64,000 nt of DNA from Candidatus Kaiserbacteria bacterium RIFCSPHIGHO2_01_FULL_53_29. GTDB lineage: Bacteria; Patescibacteriota; Minisyncoccia; Phycocordibacterales; UBA2100. Both the position numbers and the translations under genes were made by a program. This document shows positions 5,476 to 64,000 of this stretch, piece after piece. Each line of letters opens with the position of its first letter. The first letter of the stretch is position 1. The DNA is taken from NCBI GenBank assembly GCA_001781125.1, contig MFKT01000001.1, positions 3,630-67,629 of the forward strand. Reading direction: 5' to 3'. The notes beneath the pieces are model-generated. The model was not told where the DNA came from. It saw only the letters and a list, made by a program, of their open reading frames with translations, and did not search any database.

Positions 5476-7511
5476 ACATGTCTATGAAGACAGCACGACT
5501 TTCTGCGCGCGGGAATATTTTGTTCGGCATTGCCGTGCTTGTGCTTCTGCTCGGCACGATACAGTCGGACGGCGCATTCGTATCTTCTGAAGTACGTTTT
5601 GCTGACGATTCCGCACAGGGTCTTTCGATCGTGCCCGCATCATGTCCCTCAAGTCCGCATGAGACGCCGAGTGAATGTGACGAGCCCGGGTTCAATGAAT
5701 GTTTTCTTTCCGATACTCCACCGGGCATCATCGCAGAGGGCACCACCGCCACGCTGCATTGGGATGCCGGCAAGACAGACTTTACGTATTTGAGCGGAAG
5801 CATCTCTCAGGGCGTCGGTGCCGTCTCATCGGTCGGTTCCATTCCGGTAACGCCCGCGCAGACGACGCAATACGTATACACCGGCACCCGGCAGCATTAT
5901 CAGAGCAGGACCGGACAAGTTCTCTCCTTTTCGTGCAGCACGACGGTCGCGGTGGACTCGCCTCCTATCGACTACTGCCCCAATATCGCGGGCACACAAA
6001 CTTCGGTACCGAGCGGGTATCACACAGAAGACGGCCAATGCGTTCCCGACCCCCAAAAATACTCCTGCAACACGAACAATCAGTGTATAGCTGATTCCAG
6101 CGGTCCGTACACCAGCTCGAGTTGCGACAATGCGTGTGGTTCCGTCGTCCCAAAATACTCCTGCAACGCGAGCAATCAGTGTGTAGCTGATTCCAGCGGT
6201 TCATACACCAGCTCGAGTTGCGACAATGCGTGCGGCGGCGGTAGCAACTCATGTGAAATGTACTTTGAACCGGCATCAATCCCGCCCGACGGCAGCTCAA
6301 CCCTGTATTGGACCGCAGATCATCCGGGCACGATGTATCACTCCGGCGCTACATGGCAGGTTCCTGCGGTTGGCAGCGGAATAAGCGGAGACCTCGAATC
6401 GTATCAGCTCGTAGACAACGTCAACGGTGAGTCATGCACCGCAGAGCTCACGATCCAATGTCCCGCAGGCCAAACGTGGGACGGCACCCAGTGTGTCGGC
6501 CAAAAATACTCCTGCAACACGAACAATCAGTGTATAGCTGATCCCAGCGGTCCGTACACCACCTCAAGCTGCGGGGGCGCGTGTGCACCCGTCCAAAAAT
6601 ACTCCTGCAACACGAACAACCAGTGTGCGTTGGACTCGAACGGTCCGTACACATCCTCGAATTGCAACAACATCTGCGGCAGTGGCGGAGGATTTTCCTG
6701 CAACGCGGGCAATCAGTGCGTGGCGAGTCCCAGCGGTTCATACGCTACCTCGAACTGCAACAATGCGTGTGGCGGTGGCAGCTGCTCCAAGAGCCCCTAT
6801 TGCGACGACGATACCAACGCGCATTACAGCGTCAGCGCAAGCTGCCAGTACGTTTCAGACGGGGACTGTGATGGCGGTGGTTCCTGCACCAAAAAACCCT
6901 ACTGCGATGCCGGCACCAACAAGCAATACGGCGTAAGCGCTAGTTGCCAATATGTTGCAGGCGGCAGCTGCATCGAATGTCCAGGTAACCAAAGTAAGAT
7001 CTGGAACCCTACGACGCACCAATTTGAGTGTAGGGTAACCGGATGTCCATTACCGGTCTACTACTGCCAAGCTGACAACTTGTGCCACCGCACATACGGA
7101 AGCTCCCCGGAATGTCAACCAAACAACAGCTGTTCTGCCTGTGCATACGGATGCACGCAAAGCGGATCGAGCTCTTCATGCAATCCGCCGCCCGCGCCCG
7201 AGATCGTGACGTGGAACGTGCACCCGACTCTGGTTCACCGTGAGAGCACTGTGCAGGTTGAATGGGAAGCCAAAAACGTCCGATCGTGCACTGTTAGGGG
7301 CACGAATAGCGACGGCACAGGGAATAATGCCACCGGTGTGTGGGGCGGCACGGCCGGTAGCACTCACAATCTGAGCGGTACTAAAACATCAAGCCCTATT
7401 ACTGCGCAGACTATCTACACAATTGTCTGTCAGCCGGTTCCCGAGTCTGTATCCTCTCCCGTTAGCCGCTCGACGACTGTCAACATCATCCCCATTTTTC
7501 AGGAACAGTAG
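5472..7511 (+). CDS. Secreted cysteine-rich tandem-repeat protein
   Basis: Signal peptide (MKTARLSARGNILFGIAVLVLLLGTIQS) is followed by at least 5 copies of a roughly 39-aa unit KYSCNTNNQC[IV]ADSSGPYTSSSC[DN]NACG and 2 copies of a second unit PYCD..T...Y.VSASCQYV..G.C. The C-terminal region is also Cys-rich. Confidence 0.7.
   Translation: MNMSMKTARLSARGNILFGIAVLVLLLGTIQSDGAFVSSEVRFADDSAQGLSIVPASCPSSPHETPSECDEPGFNECFLSDTPPGIIAEGTTATLHWDAGKTDFTYLSGSISQGVGAVSSVGSIPVTPAQTTQYVYTGTRQHYQSRTGQVLSFSCSTTVAVDSPPIDYCPNIAGTQTSVPSGYHTEDGQCVPDPQKYSCNTNNQCIADSSGPYTSSSCDNACGSVVPKYSCNASNQCVADSSGSYTSSSCDNACGGGSNSCEMYFEPASIPPDGSSTLYWTADHPGTMYHSGATWQVPAVGSGISGDLESYQLVDNVNGESCTAELTIQCPAGQTWDGTQCVGQKYSCNTNNQCIADPSGPYTTSSCGGACAPVQKYSCNTNNQCALDSNGPYTSSNCNNICGSGGGFSCNAGNQCVASPSGSYATSNCNNACGGGSCSKSPYCDDDTNAHYSVSASCQYVSDGDCDGGGSCTKKPYCDAGTNKQYGVSASCQYVAGGSCIECPGNQSKIWNPTTHQFECRVTGCPLPVYYCQADNLCHRTYGSSPECQPNNSCSACAYGCTQSGSSSSCNPPPAPEIVTWNVHPTLVHRESTVQVEWEAKNVRSCTVRGTNSDGTGNNATGVWGGTAGSTHNLSGTKTSSPITAQTIYTIVCQPVPESVSSPVSRSTTVNIIPIFQEQ
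6040..6790 (+). repeat. About 117-bp tandem DNA repeats inside the Cys-rich protein gene
   Basis: Near-identical nucleotide blocks (aaatactcctgcaacacgaacaatcagtgtatagctgat...cagctcgagttgcgacaatgcgtg) recur at roughly 6058, 6166, 6490 and 6598. Confidence 0.7.
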
Positions 7512-43095: not shown

Positions 43096-43356
43096 TATTA
43101 AACAGCTACCAAGTCGGCCCTCATTACACCGGACCGCAGGAGGTTTTGTTCGATAGGGGAAAATAGCACTTTACAGGATAAGCGTTGGGTATACGATTGC
43201 GGTATTAGCGGCGTAACTTTTTATGAGTATGGATGAATGTAATTGCGGGGAGCACTCGACGTGCAAGCCGGGCGATGAGAAGTGCACCGGATGCGGCAAG
43301 ACCTGCCCCACGAATCGTTCGAAGATAGAAGCGGAAGAGTAGGAGGAATGTGTAAC

Positions 43357-43395
43357 CAAAAGCCGCCGCGTCAGACGCGGCGGCTTTTGGTTTTG
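43357..43395. terminator. Bidirectional rho-independent terminator
   Basis: AAAAGCCGCCGCG-TCAGA-CGCGGCGGCTTTTGGTTTT has a perfect 9-bp GC stem flanked by an A-run and a T-run. Confidence 0.7.
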
Positions 43396-43932: not shown

Positions 43933-44474
43933 AAACAAAACAAAGCCAGAAAAACTCTGTCCTGTCGATCTTTATAGAACCTTTATTCCGTAATGCTGCG
44001 CAAAACAGAATATGGAAGAACGTGAATAACATGTACTTATGTGGAGATGGCGAGAATTGCACTCGCGTCCAGAGAAGAGAATATGAACGATTCTACACAA
44101 CGTAGATTATTCTGAATTTTCGTCGCGGTGCATCAAGAACAATCAAAAGTGCATCGCGCTTACCTCTCTTTCTTGAAAGCAGTGCGCGGAGTGACGCAGA
44201 GCTCGAGTCAATTGATTATGGCGTTCGAATCAGAGCAAATGACAACTGCTGATTGAACGGTCGTTCGAGCTGTTTAGGCAAAAACGAGGCCGAGGTCTTT
44301 CGCCTGAATCGGAGAAAGAACCCCCCGTGCTACTTTGTTCGCACTTGAGTTTTGAGGCAGTTTAAAAAGATGCCACAACTTTGTTGCGCACAGACATATT
44401 CCTATTTCCCTGTCGAAACTGATCATCCCCCACCCACGATTCTACGAGAGAATCATGGGTGGGGAAGGACAAGG

Positions 44475-50233: not shown

Positions 50234-50304
50234 GCGCCCATAGCTCAATGGTAGAGCGACCGTCTTATACACGGTCTACCTAGGTTCGATTCCTAGTGGG
50301 CGTA
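50234..50304 (+). tRNA. tRNA, apparent anticodon UAU (Ile, AUA-reading) by manual cloverleaf folding; CCA not encoded
   Basis: GCGCCCA-TA-GCTC-AATGGTA-GAGC-G-ACCGT-CTTATAC-ACGGT-CTAC-CTAGG-TTCGATT-CCTAG-TGGGCGT-A. There is a G1·U72 wobble. A TTGAAA..TAGAGT promoter-like sequence lies upstream. Confidence 0.7.
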
Positions 50305-55266: not shown

Positions 55267-57435
55267 CTATTCCCCGTGCAATTCTTGTCCTGCGCTTTCT
55301 ACGCGCGCTGCGAGTGCGGGGTAGTTTGAAAGCGTTGAGTCTTTTGCGATGAGCGCTTGCGCCTCTTCGCGCGCGGCGCGGATTAATTTTACGTTTTTTA
55401 GGGCTTCCATGCCGAGGTCGCTCACACCCCATTGTTTGCGCCCAAAAAGATCGCCCGCGCCGCGCGCTTCGAGGTCGGCTTCGGCGAGTTTGAACCCATC
55501 GTCGGTACCCGCGAGCGCTCTCAAGCGCTTCAGAGAGATATCGCTCTTCGTATCGGGCAGGAGAAAACAGTAGGGTCTGTACGAGCTTCGCATGATACGC
55601 CCACGCAGTTGGTGCAATTGCGCCAATCCAAATCGCTCGGCGCCTTCGATGAGCATCACGGTCGCGTTGGGCACGTTGATGCCGACTTCGACCACCGATG
55701 TGGCAACGAGGATATCGATCTTGTGTGCCGCAAATTGCGCCATGACCCTGTCTTTCTCCTGTGGCTTGACGCCACCGTGTAAAAGGCCGATGCGGTATTC
55801 GGGGAACACATCCTTTTGCAATCGTTGTGCTTCGGCTTTTGCCGACTTCGCCTGCAGCGCGTTTATTTTTGCAGGATCAGGCTCTTCAATGCGCGGGCAG
55901 ATGACGAATGCCTGCCGTCCGGCTTTCAATTGCTCGCGTACACGCTCGTATGCACTCGCTCGGCTCGAGGGGCTAACGATTTCGGTTGTAATTTTTGCGC
56001 GTCCGGGCGGCAGCTCGTCCAAAAGAGAGATATCGAGGTCGCCATAGATGGTAAGTGAGAGCGTGCGGGGAATTGGCGTTGCAGTCATAGATAAAAAGTG
56101 AGGGGCTGCATCTCCTTTATGCGCAAGAGCACGTCTTTGCTTGGTGCCAAACCTGTGTTGTTCGTCCACTATCGCGTAGGCGAGGTGCTGGAACTTCACG
56201 GATTTTTGGATAAGCGCATGGGTGCCGACGAGCATGGCGATCTCGCCGCCCGCGACCCATTTCAAAAGCTGCGCGCGCGAAATATCGGTCGCTCCATCTC
56301 GGTCCACTTTCGACGGGAATTTTTTGCAGCCGCTTCCGGTCATAAGCGCGATATTGATCGGCAGATGCTCGAAGTATTCGATGAAGGATTGGAAGTGCTG
56401 CGCCGCCAGTATTTCCGTCGGCGCCATATAGGCAACTTGCAAGGTCCCGCTTGTACGATTCGGTGGACGTGAGTTTACTACCGCATAAGCACTCGCTGCG
56501 GCGACCAGAGTCTTGCCGCTTCCTACATCGCCCTCCAAAAGCCGCGCCATCGGGTGTAGCTTGCCGAAATCGGCAAGAATGTCGGCGATAGCGCGCCGCT
56601 GGGCTACGGTCGGCGGGAAAGGAATGGTGGCGAGGAATTTCTCTGCGAGTGCATCGCCATCCTTCATTGGAAATGACGCCTGTGAATCGTTCTCGGCACG
56701 TTCGCGGGCGCGTGCGATCTGGATCGCAAAAATTTCTTCGAATGCGAATCGTTTTCGCGCGGCTTCTGCATGCTTGAGCTCGTCCGGTTTATGAATATAC
56801 AAGAGTGCGTTCGCAAGTGGGGGCAAATTGTAGCGCTTCACGATTTCCGCAGGAATGGGATCTTGCATGGGATCCAAAATGTTTGCAGCAAATACTTTGT
56901 CGAGGGCATGGCGGAACCAAAGCGATGTGACGCCCCGGCTTTCGGGATAGACAGCAAAGAGAGAGCTTTCAGCTTTCAGCTTTGAGCTTTCAGGAGAAGA
57001 AAAAAGACCCGCTTCGACAGGATCCGCGGCTTCGACATGCGGGTTTGCGAGATACGGTTTTCCGCCTTTACCCCCCACAGTGCCGACCGCTTTTACAAAT
57101 TGCCCTTCCGAAAATTTCTTGGCGAGATACGGCTGGTGGAACCACATGATCTTGATCGAGCCCGACGAATCGGTGATAACCGCTTCGCCGACGGGAATTC
57201 TCCTCTTCCACGATCTTCGCGTGTCGAGTTTGCTGATGGTGCCGAAGATCGTCACTGAAGCGCCCGCGACGAGTCCTGTAATAGCTGAATCCATTCCACC
57301 CTGATCGTAGCGAACGGGGAAGTGATACAGGAGCTGACGAACCGTCAAAAGCCCTAGTTTTTTCAAACCACTGAGCTGTACAGGTGTAAGTCGGAAGTAT
57401 TTCGTGAGGGCGTCGTTGGGGTGCATTGGAGGCAT
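55267..57435 (-). CDS. recG: ATP-dependent DNA helicase RecG
   Basis: Wedge/OB N-terminal region and the helicase motifs LLEGDVGSGKTLVAAASAY and IVDEQHRFG. The start is set at the internal ATG (MPPMHPNDAL). Confidence 0.88.
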   Translation of the reverse strand: MPPMHPNDALTKYFRLTPVQLSGLKKLGLLTVRQLLYHFPVRYDQGGMDSAITGLVAGASVTIFGTISKLDTRRSWKRRIPVGEAVITDSSGSIKIMWFHQPYLAKKFSEGQFVKAVGTVGGKGGKPYLANPHVEAADPVEAGLFSSPESSKLKAESSLFAVYPESRGVTSLWFRHALDKVFAANILDPMQDPIPAEIVKRYNLPPLANALLYIHKPDELKHAEAARKRFAFEEIFAIQIARARERAENDSQASFPMKDGDALAEKFLATIPFPPTVAQRRAIADILADFGKLHPMARLLEGDVGSGKTLVAAASAYAVVNSRPPNRTSGTLQVAYMAPTEILAAQHFQSFIEYFEHLPINIALMTGSGCKKFPSKVDRDGATDISRAQLLKWVAGGEIAMLVGTHALIQKSVKFQHLAYAIVDEQHRFGTKQRRALAHKGDAAPHFLSMTATPIPRTLSLTIYGDLDISLLDELPPGRAKITTEIVSPSSRASAYERVREQLKAGRQAFVICPRIEEPDPAKINALQAKSAKAEAQRLQKDVFPEYRIGLLHGGVKPQEKDRVMAQFAAHKIDILVATSVVEVGINVPNATVMLIEGAERFGLAQLHQLRGRIMRSSYRPYCFLLPDTKSDISLKRLRALAGTDDGFKLAEADLEARGAGDLFGRKQWGVSDLGMEALKNVKLIRAAREEAQALIAKDSTLSNYPALAARVESAGQELHGE

Positions 57436-62000: not shown

Positions 62001-62909
62001 TCAAAATATCAAATCTTCGTCCTTTACTGACCGTGTCATAAGTTCCTTTAGCGCTGTTTGTGGAGATCTTTCCCCCGCAACTACTTTTGCGATCTGTGAG
62101 AAAAGAGGAAGATCAAGCCGGTTTCGCTCACTTAATTTGAGGACAAGCTGAGCGTTACGAATACCCTCCACGGTGATACCCCTCTTACGTCCGACACTTC
62201 CTGATCTGCCGATTGAGAATCCAGTCGAATAATTTCTACTTTTTACGCTCGTGCACGTTAGGATCAGGTCGCCTATCCCCGATAAGCCACGCAAGGTCTG
62301 CTCACGTGCTCCCTCGGCCCTGGCCAAAATTACCATTTCGCGAAATCCGCGGGTGATAAGCGCTGCTCGGGCGTTGTCGCCACAGCCCATGCCATCACTG
62401 ATGCCGGCGGCAAGGGCGACAATGTTTTTCAACATCCCGCCTAATTCAACACCGATGACGTCTTTGGTCCGATAGACACGGAAATTTTCAGTGCAGAATA
62501 ATCTCTGCACTTTTTCCGACGCTTCCGAAGAATGAGAGGCCGCAACAACCGCAGTTGGTTTGCGCTGTGACACTTCCCCGGCAAAACTCGGGCCGGACAA
62601 TACGGTAAATTTTCGCGCGTGATGCGGGCTCAATTCTTCAACGATCTGGGATGTTCGCATCAGCGAAGCATCTTCCAGTCCTTTTGTTACAGAGATGACA
62701 ATCGTGTGAGGACTAAGCTTGGGTAAGACATCAGCCGCAATCTCACGGAAAATTGCAGAAGGGGGAGCCAGAATAAGAAATTCAACGTTTGCAATCGCTT
62801 CCATTTTCGCCCTTTTTTGCCACAGCACTACGTCGCGGCCGTTGTCTCTGAGTGGCACTGCCAAGGCGGTACCCCACTGCCCGGCTGGGATAATTACAAC
62901 TTTAGACAT
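62001..62909 (-). CDS. gpsA: NAD(P)H-dependent glycerol-3-phosphate dehydrogenase
   Basis: MSKVVIIPAGQWGTALA... (Rossmann GxGxxG) ...LGGMLKNIVALAAGISDGMG... matches GpsA. The start is set at the internal ATG. The listed ORF extends a further 55 codons upstream through hairpin-rich sequence. Confidence 0.85.
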   Translation of the reverse strand: MSKVVIIPAGQWGTALAVPLRDNGRDVVLWQKRAKMEAIANVEFLILAPPSAIFREIAADVLPKLSPHTIVISVTKGLEDASLMRTSQIVEELSPHHARKFTVLSGPSFAGEVSQRKPTAVVAASHSSEASEKVQRLFCTENFRVYRTKDVIGVELGGMLKNIVALAAGISDGMGCGDNARAALITRGFREMVILARAEGAREQTLRGLSGIGDLILTCTSVKSRNYSTGFSIGRSGSVGRKRGITVEGIRNAQLVLKLSERNRLDLPLFSQIAKVVAGERSPQTALKELMTRSVKDEDLIF

Positions 62910-63463
62910 ACGTGGATGGCGTTGACCTTTATTTTTTGAGTAATTCATCCGCAAGATCCTGTCTGGCGGTGTAATCATATCCTTTGCGCGAACCTTTTTC
63001 GAGCGGAACTGACTTCGCACGCTCCGCGTGCGTGGTGGCTTGAAACTGCATCGTACGCTCCGATCGCGTGGCAACTCTGAATCCCGCCACGCGCGGAGTA
63101 CCGCGCGTCCCGCCCTCTCGCCTTGCCGCTCCTCTCCATTCTGATTTTTTGCGGGGGGGGAATTTGAAAAAAGGAATGGGCGGCAAAGGCGAGGGGCGGC
63201 GCTTCCTTTTCAAGATTCCAAGAAAAGGAAGCGGACGGGATTCAAATACAACAAGGAGCAAACGGCTCGAATGCACTAAACGAGCCGTTTGCACAAAATC
63301 AGGAATACAAAGCGGAGCCTCGCCATACAAAATTCTTCAAGGAATGGCGAGGCGCAAAATCTATATGTGTTTGCCCCTCCCTCCCAGCGCACACATCATC
63401 CCCGCCGTTTTAGGAAAACATTTTAAAACGGCGGGGATGGCTCCCTGAAGAATTATCAACGCG
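62910..63463. other. A 550-nt noncoding tract packed with at least 5 near-perfect GC-rich stem-loops
   Basis: Hairpins: 63088-63106 CGCGCGG/AGTA/CCGCGCG; 63198-63238 CGCTTCCTTTT...AAAAGGAAGCG; 63261-63290 AAACGGCTCG...CGAGCCGTTT; 63317-63352 GCCTCGCCAT...ATGGCGAGGC; 63400-63436 CCCCGCCGTTTTA...TAAAACGGCGGGG. A G8 run sits at 63153-63160. Confidence 0.5.
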
Positions 63464-63907
63464 TTAGCTTTGTCTGACATTTGCTTTCTCCAATTTTCTT
63501 ACTGCTTTCAAACGATGTGGTTTTCTACCCTGGTATTTCGTTTCTAAAAATCGCATTGCGATTTTTATATTCTTCTCGACTGGTGTAAATGCGGACAAAC
63601 ACAAAACATTTGCGTTGTTTATGATTTTTGCGTTCTTTGCGTGCGTGAGCTCATAGCACGCGACGGCGTATATCCCTTTGTGCTTGTTCGCACATATCGC
63701 TGTCCCACTTCCCGTTCCGCACATCAAAATACCTTCTGTCTTGTGCTTTTTCACCAGTCGAGAAACCTCTTTCGAAATATCAATGTAGTTATCGAGTGCC
63801 GGATTTTTCTCGACGACATCTACCACTTTGCCAACGTGCGACAGCGCGCGTTTCATGCGCTCGACTTGTTTTTTGCCCTGATAGTCCGACCCAAATATAA
63901 TTTTCAT
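63464..63907 (-). CDS. rpiB: Ribose-5-phosphate isomerase B (RpiB/LacAB family)
   Basis: MKIIFGSDYQGKK...GILMCGTGSGTAICANKHKGIYAVAC matches RpiB. Confidence 0.88.
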   Translation of the reverse strand: MKIIFGSDYQGKKQVERMKRALSHVGKVVDVVEKNPALDNYIDISKEVSRLVKKHKTEGILMCGTGSGTAICANKHKGIYAVACYELTHAKNAKIINNANVLCLSAFTPVEKNIKIAMRFLETKYQGRKPHRLKAVRKLEKANVRQS

Positions 63908-64000
63908 ACAATGTGAAGAATATCGTCTACCGCCTTGGTAAATCCTCGCATATCTTTTTCGGACAAAAATCCCATCGTCGAAACCTCGAATGTTTTTCCT
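63904..64000 (-). CDS. 3' end of an unidentified upstream minus-strand gene (5' end outside the window)
   Basis: The frame ...EVSTMGFLSEKDMRGFTKAVDDILHIV* has a TGA that overlaps the rpiB ATG (ATGA). Confidence 0.35.
   Translation of the reverse strand, partial: GKTFEVSTMGFLSEKDMRGFTKAVDDILHIV

Follow-up and report, generated by a model that had tools for sequence, protein, structure and literature searches.

The intergenic tract between gpsA and rpiB at positions 62910-63463 of the stretch of Candidatus Kaiserbacteria bacterium RIFCSPHIGHO2_01_FULL_53_29 DNA that we analysed (64,000 nt of contig MFKT01000001.1, hereafter the window) is probably the non-coding end module of an integrative cassette island that is driven by a large serine recombinase (LSR), targets tRNA genes and is widespread in Patescibacteria. 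The gap between the two genes is rich in hairpins, includes a run of eight G residues and holds two modules, which we term F and t (Table 1). On a consensus map, the island would comprise host DNA, F, t, a cassette whose genes point toward t, an inverted second copy of F (F'), one arm of a further inverted repeat (IR2), the body of the LSR gene, the other arm (IR2') and a tRNA gene, and the window would contain the gpsA-side junction, F, t and the 3' end of the cassette. The LSR would insert the island beside a tRNA gene, leaving an attP-type arm at the 5' end of F, and recombination between the long identical F copies would allow the cassette to be inverted or exchanged. What is new here is a variant of a serine-recombinase integrative element with an unexplained, highly conserved hairpin module.

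The inverted-repeat architecture is directly observed. Metagenome contigs that encode an identical RpiB align with the window as two blocks, with the border between them at 63199/63200 (a slash marks a boundary). At four homologous loci (L001, L003, L004 and L005; loci are cited by their L numbers), ...GCGAGGGGCGG runs into the helix-turn-helix (HTH) end of the cassette, and the order is F, an XRE HTH gene, a cupin-like gene, a class V aminotransferase gene, rpiB, the reverse complement of 63200-63449 and then the reverse complement of 63156-63199; L004 carries 44-nt perfect terminal repeats of 63156-63199. From the two-block match and these junctions it follows that F is one arm of an inverted repeat. 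By the same alignments, its right copy is predicted ~2.2 kb to the right, past the end of the window, as are the cupin-like and XRE HTH genes of the cassette (order from L001, L002 and L004). The segment enclosed by the F arms is here ~2.4 kb, and t is single-copy. Profile searches with nhmmer returned F in 119 of the 129 homologous loci that we collected and revealed a simple rule, namely that F occurs as a facing inverted pair of which just one copy continues into t. Such facing pairs are found in 36 loci, with their inner ends 965-6804 nt apart (median 1979 nt), and a pair is present in 10 of the 16 loci having enough sequence. The end of the F repeat is the same to the nucleotide throughout, ...GGGGCGGC(T)TCC/, and this end and the far cassette boundary carry a similar motif, each after the 3' arm of a hairpin. 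Repeat copies are identical within genomes and differ between genomes.

The conservation of the element is equally plain. An exact 27-mer of 63173-63199 is found at 15 loci among GTDB species representatives, labelled Kaiserbacteria, Adlerbacteria, Nomurabacteria, Paceibacterota and Saccharibacteria, and an exact 22-mer of the same segment at 114 metagenome loci. The 22-mer matched zero contigs in IMG/VR, and a phage origin was set aside on this ground. Across the 129 loci, which come from diverse Patescibacteria, the element is 430-500 nt long, corresponds to ~62962 to 63449 of the window and shows a pairwise full-element identity of 70-96% (median 84%). It is far better conserved than the recombinase that accompanies it: L016 and L019 share 87% of F-t while their LSRs are only 33% identical.

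The cassettes, by contrast with this single conserved element, are many: we distinguished 48 of them, 0.8-3.9 kb in length, with precise boundaries and with genes mostly directed from F' toward t. Their 130 open reading frames (ORFs) fall into 93 protein clusters, of which only that of the small XRE HTH protein, with 20 ORFs, recurs. Pfam domains encoded in the cassettes include NUDIX, C5 DNA methylase (Dcm), trypsin-like protease, CMAS-type methyltransferase, RmlD, class IV aminotransferase, LAGLIDADG, ART-PolyVal and Shedu SduA with DUF7736, and the cassettes have promoter- and operator-like palindromes of their own just inside F'. That cassettes are replaced within one species is seen at L141, from another Rifle sample, where GpsA is identical and the flank is 99.7% identical up to the position of 63449, after which a Shedu cassette takes the place of rpiB; GpsA and F-t are kept and the cassette is swapped. 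At L136 (67-3937) and L145 (4500-6700) the cassette slot holds the same kind of module, with an HTH controller, a C5 DNA methylase, a nuclease (HNH or unknown) and an S24/LexA-like peptidase, which looks like a restriction-modification-type system.

Linkage to a recombinase and to a tRNA gene is observed in the relatives. An LSR gene encoding the Pfam domains Resolvase, Recombinase and Zn_ribbon_recom adjoins F' in at least 16 loci, the usual order being F, t, cassette, F', 60-300 nt and LSR. The stretch between F' and the start of the LSR gene repeats the 3' coding end of that gene in reverse complement, and it is this duplication that forms IR2, with arms of 95-143 nt that are 91-100% identical and ~1410-1600 nt apart; a tRNA gene on the opposite strand adjoins the 3' arm with its 3' end. 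As an independent check, four LSR homologues were taken from a protein search and selected without regard to F. All four have IR2 and a tRNA-Ser gene, and one of them (L146) has the entire architecture with a far more diverged F. The LSR family numbers more than 6,500 members at E<=1e-40. In the species of the window, a fragment coding for an LSR C-terminus (...SELEVSICG, as in L126) lies directly beside F' at L003; a protein look-up with this C-terminal peptide found no homologue. At several loci (L016 5626-5793, L126 3140-3388, L020 3520-3700 and L003 1-134) the LSR ORF extends through the IR2 arm and further over the tRNA gene in antisense (peptide ...SICG-EGGIRTHE).

Four sequence types can be distinguished in the first ~25 nt of F, and they track LSR subgroup and tRNA type. 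Counted from the IR2 end, the motif (C/T)GAACC, which is complementary to the T-loop of the tRNA, is found on the F side at +16 to +20 and on the tRNA side at +10 to +15, and in seven of seven loci the F side is offset from the abutting tRNA by 4-6 nt, that is, by a half-site shift of ~5 bp between element and host that is a pattern in the sequence only. In serine integrase systems, the motif bound by the zinc-ribbon domain lies 5 bp nearer the centre in attB than in attP (Rutherford et al., PMC3783163). Since the offset resembles this attP/attB shift, the 5' end of F can be read as an attP-type arm, and its first ~30 nt would be what is left of attP after integration by the LSR.

On the host side, the sequences of the window and of L003 agree only from ...TCTG(G)CGGTG on, the outer flanks of F copies being unrelated host DNA or an IR2 arm. 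The upstream flank of gpsA reads ...CATCCGCAAGATCCTG, and the left junction may be read as lying at ~62955-62965. The gpsA gene itself starts where the first-pass annotation, made from the sequence of the window, had placed it in preference to a longer ORF: gene calls on metagenome contigs give the 302-aa protein, and an identical GpsA is an NCBI protein from Candidatus Kaiserbacteria RIFCSPHIGHO2_01_FULL_53_2x. At the locus of the nearest GpsA relative (65% identity, L144), which has neither F nor t, a tRNA-Arg gene and decayed tRNA fragments lie on the gpsA strand, 265 nt upstream of the gene; the stretch 6663-7000 reads tRNA-Arg(cct), two or three incomplete, decayed copies of it, and then gpsA. 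The fragments resemble traces left by successive rounds of integration and excision at this position, and the arrangement is what one would expect of a site that has been used repeatedly and holds no insertion.

The 5' end of F also carries a promoter-like site that faces outward. A -10-like hexamer is found on the minus strand of F, 9-12 nt from its end, in 60 of 64 F copies despite their differing sequence types (TACAAT in 32, TATGAT in 13, TAAAAT in 7, TATAAT in 4, TAGAAT in 2 and TATACT in 2). In the window the hexamer is directed at gpsA, 65 nt away, and in F' the same site is directed through IR2 into the LSR gene. It is possible that the F' copy would thus drive the LSR, and that the window copy would read into gpsA. 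If the outward promoter of F' were used, the 5' untranslated region of the LSR mRNA would be a perfect complement of ~135 nt at the 3' coding end of the same transcript. For annotation, the tract is best read as an island end, probably with the promoter region of gpsA, and not as an RNA gene of a known class.

Several points weigh against an LSR-driven island. The LSR, IR2 and tRNA gene of this genome lie outside the window, so that the L003 fragment is the sole link to them, and no empty site of the same species was present among 11 contigs. A second F copy is not present in ~6 of the 16 longer loci, and the sampling of loci by an exact 22-mer inflates the apparent conservation. For no member was an empty site, a circular junction or an excision product seen, a circular junction being indistinguishable from the internal F'/IR2 junction, and no recombination directionality factor was identified, no candidate having been examined. 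Differences in cassette orientation may reflect ambiguity of the assembly path, because the 240-nt F exceeds the assembler's k of 141. Finally, an LSR site need only be ~50 bp long, which leaves ~400 further conserved, structure-preserving nucleotides unaccounted for.

Another explanation, which we regard as unlikely, is that F-t encodes a large structured RNA of a new kind, or forms a strand-specific fold of single-stranded DNA (ssDNA) such as a priming site or origin; either would work with the recombinase or with host machinery, the DNA repeats being secondary. The hairpins lie where the first-pass annotation had placed them and are not random. With perfect pairing, a stem of at least 9 bp and a loop of 3-25 nt, the whole window contains 20 hairpins, four of them inside one 240-nt stretch, and folding of 62957-63455 gave z scores of -8.3 and -9.4 on the two strands against dinucleotide shuffles, with 0 of 100 shuffles as good. 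Across 64 F copies, 95% of alignment cells pair, and 16 pairs have changed on both sides, compared with 2.4 +/- 1.2 in shuffles (0/500) and 7-14 in slid controls. In H4, 11 of 19 pairs have compensated double changes, and its stem is wholly replaced in diverged copies (L117:1881-2119, L026:8380-8658 and L011:509-752). The central pair of H2 is T.G in 54 of 64 copies and switches to C-G in 5 and to T-A in 3, which makes H2 the only helix favouring the plus strand. The superior conservation of F-t relative to the LSR would also suit an RNA gene, as would its lack of coding character: the G-run varies from 6 to 10 nt in homologues and thus marks the tract as non-coding, and two ORFs that might have been coding (63068-63448 on the plus strand and 62929-63330 on the minus strand) were rejected on account of this run, of a 59-nt insertion that shifts the frames and of peptide frames that are not kept among homologues.

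However, the two strands do not differ in folding energy, the mismatches of the t hairpins can be read as G.U wobbles on one strand about as often as on the other, the big hairpin is flipped in L146, perfect-palindrome stems are unusual for RNA genes, and no promoter was found for the F-to-t direction. Nor does Rfam recognise the tract. The first-pass annotation had left the choice between a structured RNA and a repetitive extragenic palindromic (REP)-like array; a conserved, structured, non-coding element (129 loci, compensatory changes) has survived of this, while membership of a known RNA family and the REP identity have not. A scan of the whole window at gathering thresholds reported only a tmRNA gene and a tRNA at 50234-50304, so that none of tmRNA, 6S, RNase P or signal recognition particle (SRP) RNA matches the tract, and a permissive scan of 62700-63700 gave sub-threshold microRNA-type hairpin matches only. 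Resemblances to T-box, RNase P and SRP RNA noticed by eye were unconfirmed by Rfam. The tract is not a tmRNA gene either: ssrA lies elsewhere, beside smpB, and the earlier remark that smpB lacks an adjacent ssrA was mistaken, because a complete tmRNA gene, recognised by Rfam, follows immediately downstream of the SmpB ORF. A long-range pairing between F and t that was predicted by minimum free energy folding, GAATCCCG (63078) with CGGGATTC (63236), was discarded since common variants give C.A or C.T mismatches. RNAalifold produced a poor consensus on 25 and on 64 sequences, these alignments not being structural. Given that structure is preserved with the strand not settled, we favour a view in which the role of F is most likely DNA-level or dual, and in which t mainly provides two-way transcription stops or insulators between the cassette and its flank. 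Two t hairpins have U-rich tails on the minus (cassette) strand.

A scenario that we likewise hold to be unlikely is that of an inverton, in which the recombinase flips the F-to-F' segment so that an outside promoter drives the cassette or t. The segment is indeed bounded by inverted repeats with a recombinase gene alongside, and the repeat copies have the pattern of identity within and difference between genomes described above. Both orientations are seen as well: relative to gpsA, the cassettes of the window and L002 differ from that of L001, with flanks that are 100% identical, and relative to the LSR gene, those of L048 and L148 differ from the others, which suggests cassette inversion. 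However, flipping between identical repeats restores the same local arrangement, the cassettes have their own promoter- and operator-like palindromes inside F', RecA alone could flip 240-nt repeats, and the orientation calls are unsafe with a repeat that exceeds the assembly k-mer.

It is also rather doubtful that the recombinase and IR2 form a separate insertion sequence (IS)-like unit inserted between the tRNA 3' end and a pre-existing F cassette. IR2 resembles terminal inverted repeats, and two loci without a recombinase would fit such a history: at L015 a tRNA-Ala is followed directly (183-190) by F in a shortened element, F 1-109 fused to t 103-181, and at L093 a 72-nt palindrome of two IR2 ends (1699-1769), as a remnant of IR2, separates tRNA-Ala from F. 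Yet F cassettes lie beside different tRNA types that follow LSR subgroup, and therefore something must move F cassettes; moreover, the far F end abuts unrelated host genes, and at L026 the LSR 3' end runs straight into an F copy. We consider it improbable that the ~450-nt F-t element is an active cofactor of a minimal flip-flop cassette carrier, a new class of mobile element in Candidate Phyla Radiation (CPR) bacteria; the cofactor could then be an RNA or single-strand fold by which the serine recombinase is guided or gated, or else a site at which replication of the excised circle is primed or begins independently of protein, and would be more than a set of terminators.

A REP-like array of dispersed palindromes, or a stack of intrinsic terminators after rpiB, can be dismissed as highly improbable: many GC-rich hairpins do stand in series, two with U-rich tails on the minus strand, but the array would be single-copy in 64 kb, every hairpin is distinct in sequence, their order and flanks are conserved over 129 loci, F also lies upstream of cassettes, and a simple terminator scan found zero sites within 62910-63463. 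The search for further copies was made both with the 27-mer of 63173-63199, which has one match in the window at up to three mismatches, and with the nhmmer F and t profiles, which matched 62966-63452 alone. F-like matches at 55294-55481 were weak, lay inside a long ORF and were judged to be chance.

Other features of the island family and of the window deserve mention beside the LSR-driven island that we favour. In one recombinase subgroup (L019 4876-4958, L048 3127-3214, L115 and L129), the last 80 nt of t, comprising the terminal palindrome and GGCTCCC, recur as a diverged copy 25-110 nt upstream of the recombinase start codon and inside the IR2-bounded segment. Many independent contigs end precisely where the terminal 16-bp palindrome has its outer edge (t profile position ~131), among them L005-L010 (window 63389-63400), L032, L040, L045, L046, L089, L112 and L129; this could be a drop of sequencing or assembly at a strong hairpin, or a real variant junction. 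Contigs L117 (6729 nt) and L134 (6134 nt) are palindromes over their whole length, the recombinase or F-t being mirrored at both ends, and are either fold-back assembly artefacts from repeats or real head-to-head arrangements. Outside the tract, the longest perfect hairpin of the window (43354-43392, an 18-bp stem with a 3-nt loop and A/T-rich outer ends) lies ~650 nt from the tmRNA gene and is probably a two-way terminator.

Table 1. Features of the gpsA-rpiB tract and of related loci in the window.
Feature	Position	Strand	Remarks
gpsA, 302 aa, host gene flanking the island	62001-62909	-	Pfam NAD_Gly3P_dh domains; start at 62909
Host-side flank of the left junction, attL-like	62910-62961	.	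homology among F copies begins at ~62962
Module F, left copy of the ~240-nt inverted repeat	62962-63199	+	inner boundary ...GGGGCGG/C precise
F 5' end, putative attP-type half-site ..GCGGTGTAATCATATCCTTTGCGCGAACC	62962-62994	+	motif offset relative to tRNA; overlaps the outward promoter-like site
-10-like TATGAT	62979-62974	-	promoter scan
-35-like TCGAAA	63002-62997	-	promoter scan 63002..62974, 9/12 matches; consensus match only
Hairpin H1, CGCACGC tcc GCGTGCG, 7-bp stem	63016-63032	+	variants CGCGCGC/GCGCGCG and a shifted register retain the stem
Helix H2	63033-63087	+	GGTGG 63033-63037 pairs with CCGCC 63083-63087
Hairpin H3, ACGCGCGG agta CCGCGCGT, 8-bp stem	63089-63108	+	stem swapped yet paired in L021, L110 and L046
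Hairpin H4, long, imperfect, ~40 bp	63110-63199	+	apical loop holds the variable G-run 63153-63160
Module t, palindromic hairpin chain	63200-63449	+	ends at the cassette boundary ...GGGGATGGCTCCC/; nhmmer profile matches
Perfect 12-bp palindrome at the F/t junction	63200-63233	+	repeat boundary inside its left arm in all genomes
Lineage-specific insertion, 59 nt	63245-63303	+	6/25 aligned elements: window, L020, L022, L120, L091, L083
Perfect 12-bp hairpin	63258-63292	+	carried by the insertion 63245-63303
Perfect 10-bp hairpin	63317-63353	+	U-rich tail on the minus strand (read from sequence); compensatory variants L048, L117
Terminal perfect 16-bp palindrome, then GCTCCC	63397-63439	+	fully compensated variants L011, L091, L122, L131, L020
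Start of cassette, 3' end first	63450-64000	-	rpiB 63464-63907; class V aminotransferase 3' end 63904-64000
tmRNA gene, full-length	44039-44430	-	Rfam, 86.7 bits
SmpB ORF	44475-~44912	-	tmRNA gene directly downstream

CPR bacteria (Patescibacteria) have tiny genomes with few recognised mobile elements, and their exchange of accessory and defence genes is poorly known. A compact island of recombinase and cassette could be a main vehicle of the flexible CPR genome; its boundaries are precise and its cargo is very diverse (restriction-modification genes, Shedu, enzymes and surface proteins), and the predicted pairs of attP and tRNA-borne attB offer many testable natural serine-integrase systems. 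We found no account of this architecture in the literature, and the double inverted-repeat design with its conserved hairpin module is apparently without a described counterpart there.

Among known systems, the tycheposons of Prochlorococcus integrate at tRNA genes, mostly by means of tyrosine recombinases, and carry replication genes. They and other tRNA-targeting integrative islands resemble the island in being small cargo islands of streamlined genomes that lack classical transfer systems, and the title and abstract of the tycheposon description mention neither a double inverted-repeat architecture nor a conserved hairpin module (10.1101/2020.12.28.424599). Invertons and shufflons (Hin/hix, Gin and Rci) share with the island the inverted repeats around a segment and a recombinase gene beside or inside it, whereas the island has repeats of 10 times the length that are highly conserved from one species to another, its flip is symmetric with no obvious on/off outcome, and its recombinase is of the large integrase type. 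Integron cassettes and attC sites are alike in providing swappable, promoter-poor cassettes with structured palindromic bounds and an adjacent recombinase; in the island, however, the recombinase is of the serine type rather than IntI, there is one multi-gene cassette rather than an array, and the boundary motif is GGCTYCC after a hairpin. The yeast 2-micron plasmid is a flip-flop replicon that uses a tyrosine recombinase (FLP/FRT). A circularised island would likewise split into two unique segments, one with the recombinase, each of which could be flipped with its genes intact, but the island's recombinase is of the serine type and the island is seen only in the integrated state. The elements of large serine integrases (phiC31, Bxb1, A118/LI, the SPbeta prophage and, with CcrAB, SCCmec) have the same Resolvase, Recombinase and zinc-ribbon domains, the SPbeta integrase being the closest solved relative of the island LSR (E 9e-14), and they too insert at a conserved host gene, here at the tRNA 3' end, and show the half-site motif shift of ~5 nt between element and host sides. 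The island differs from them in that it is tiny (~4-6 kb) and without phage or conjugation genes, in that the LSR body lies inside 95-143 nt inverted repeats containing its own 3' coding end, and in having a second repeat of 160-240 nt around the cargo together with a conserved, structured non-coding module of ~400 nt.

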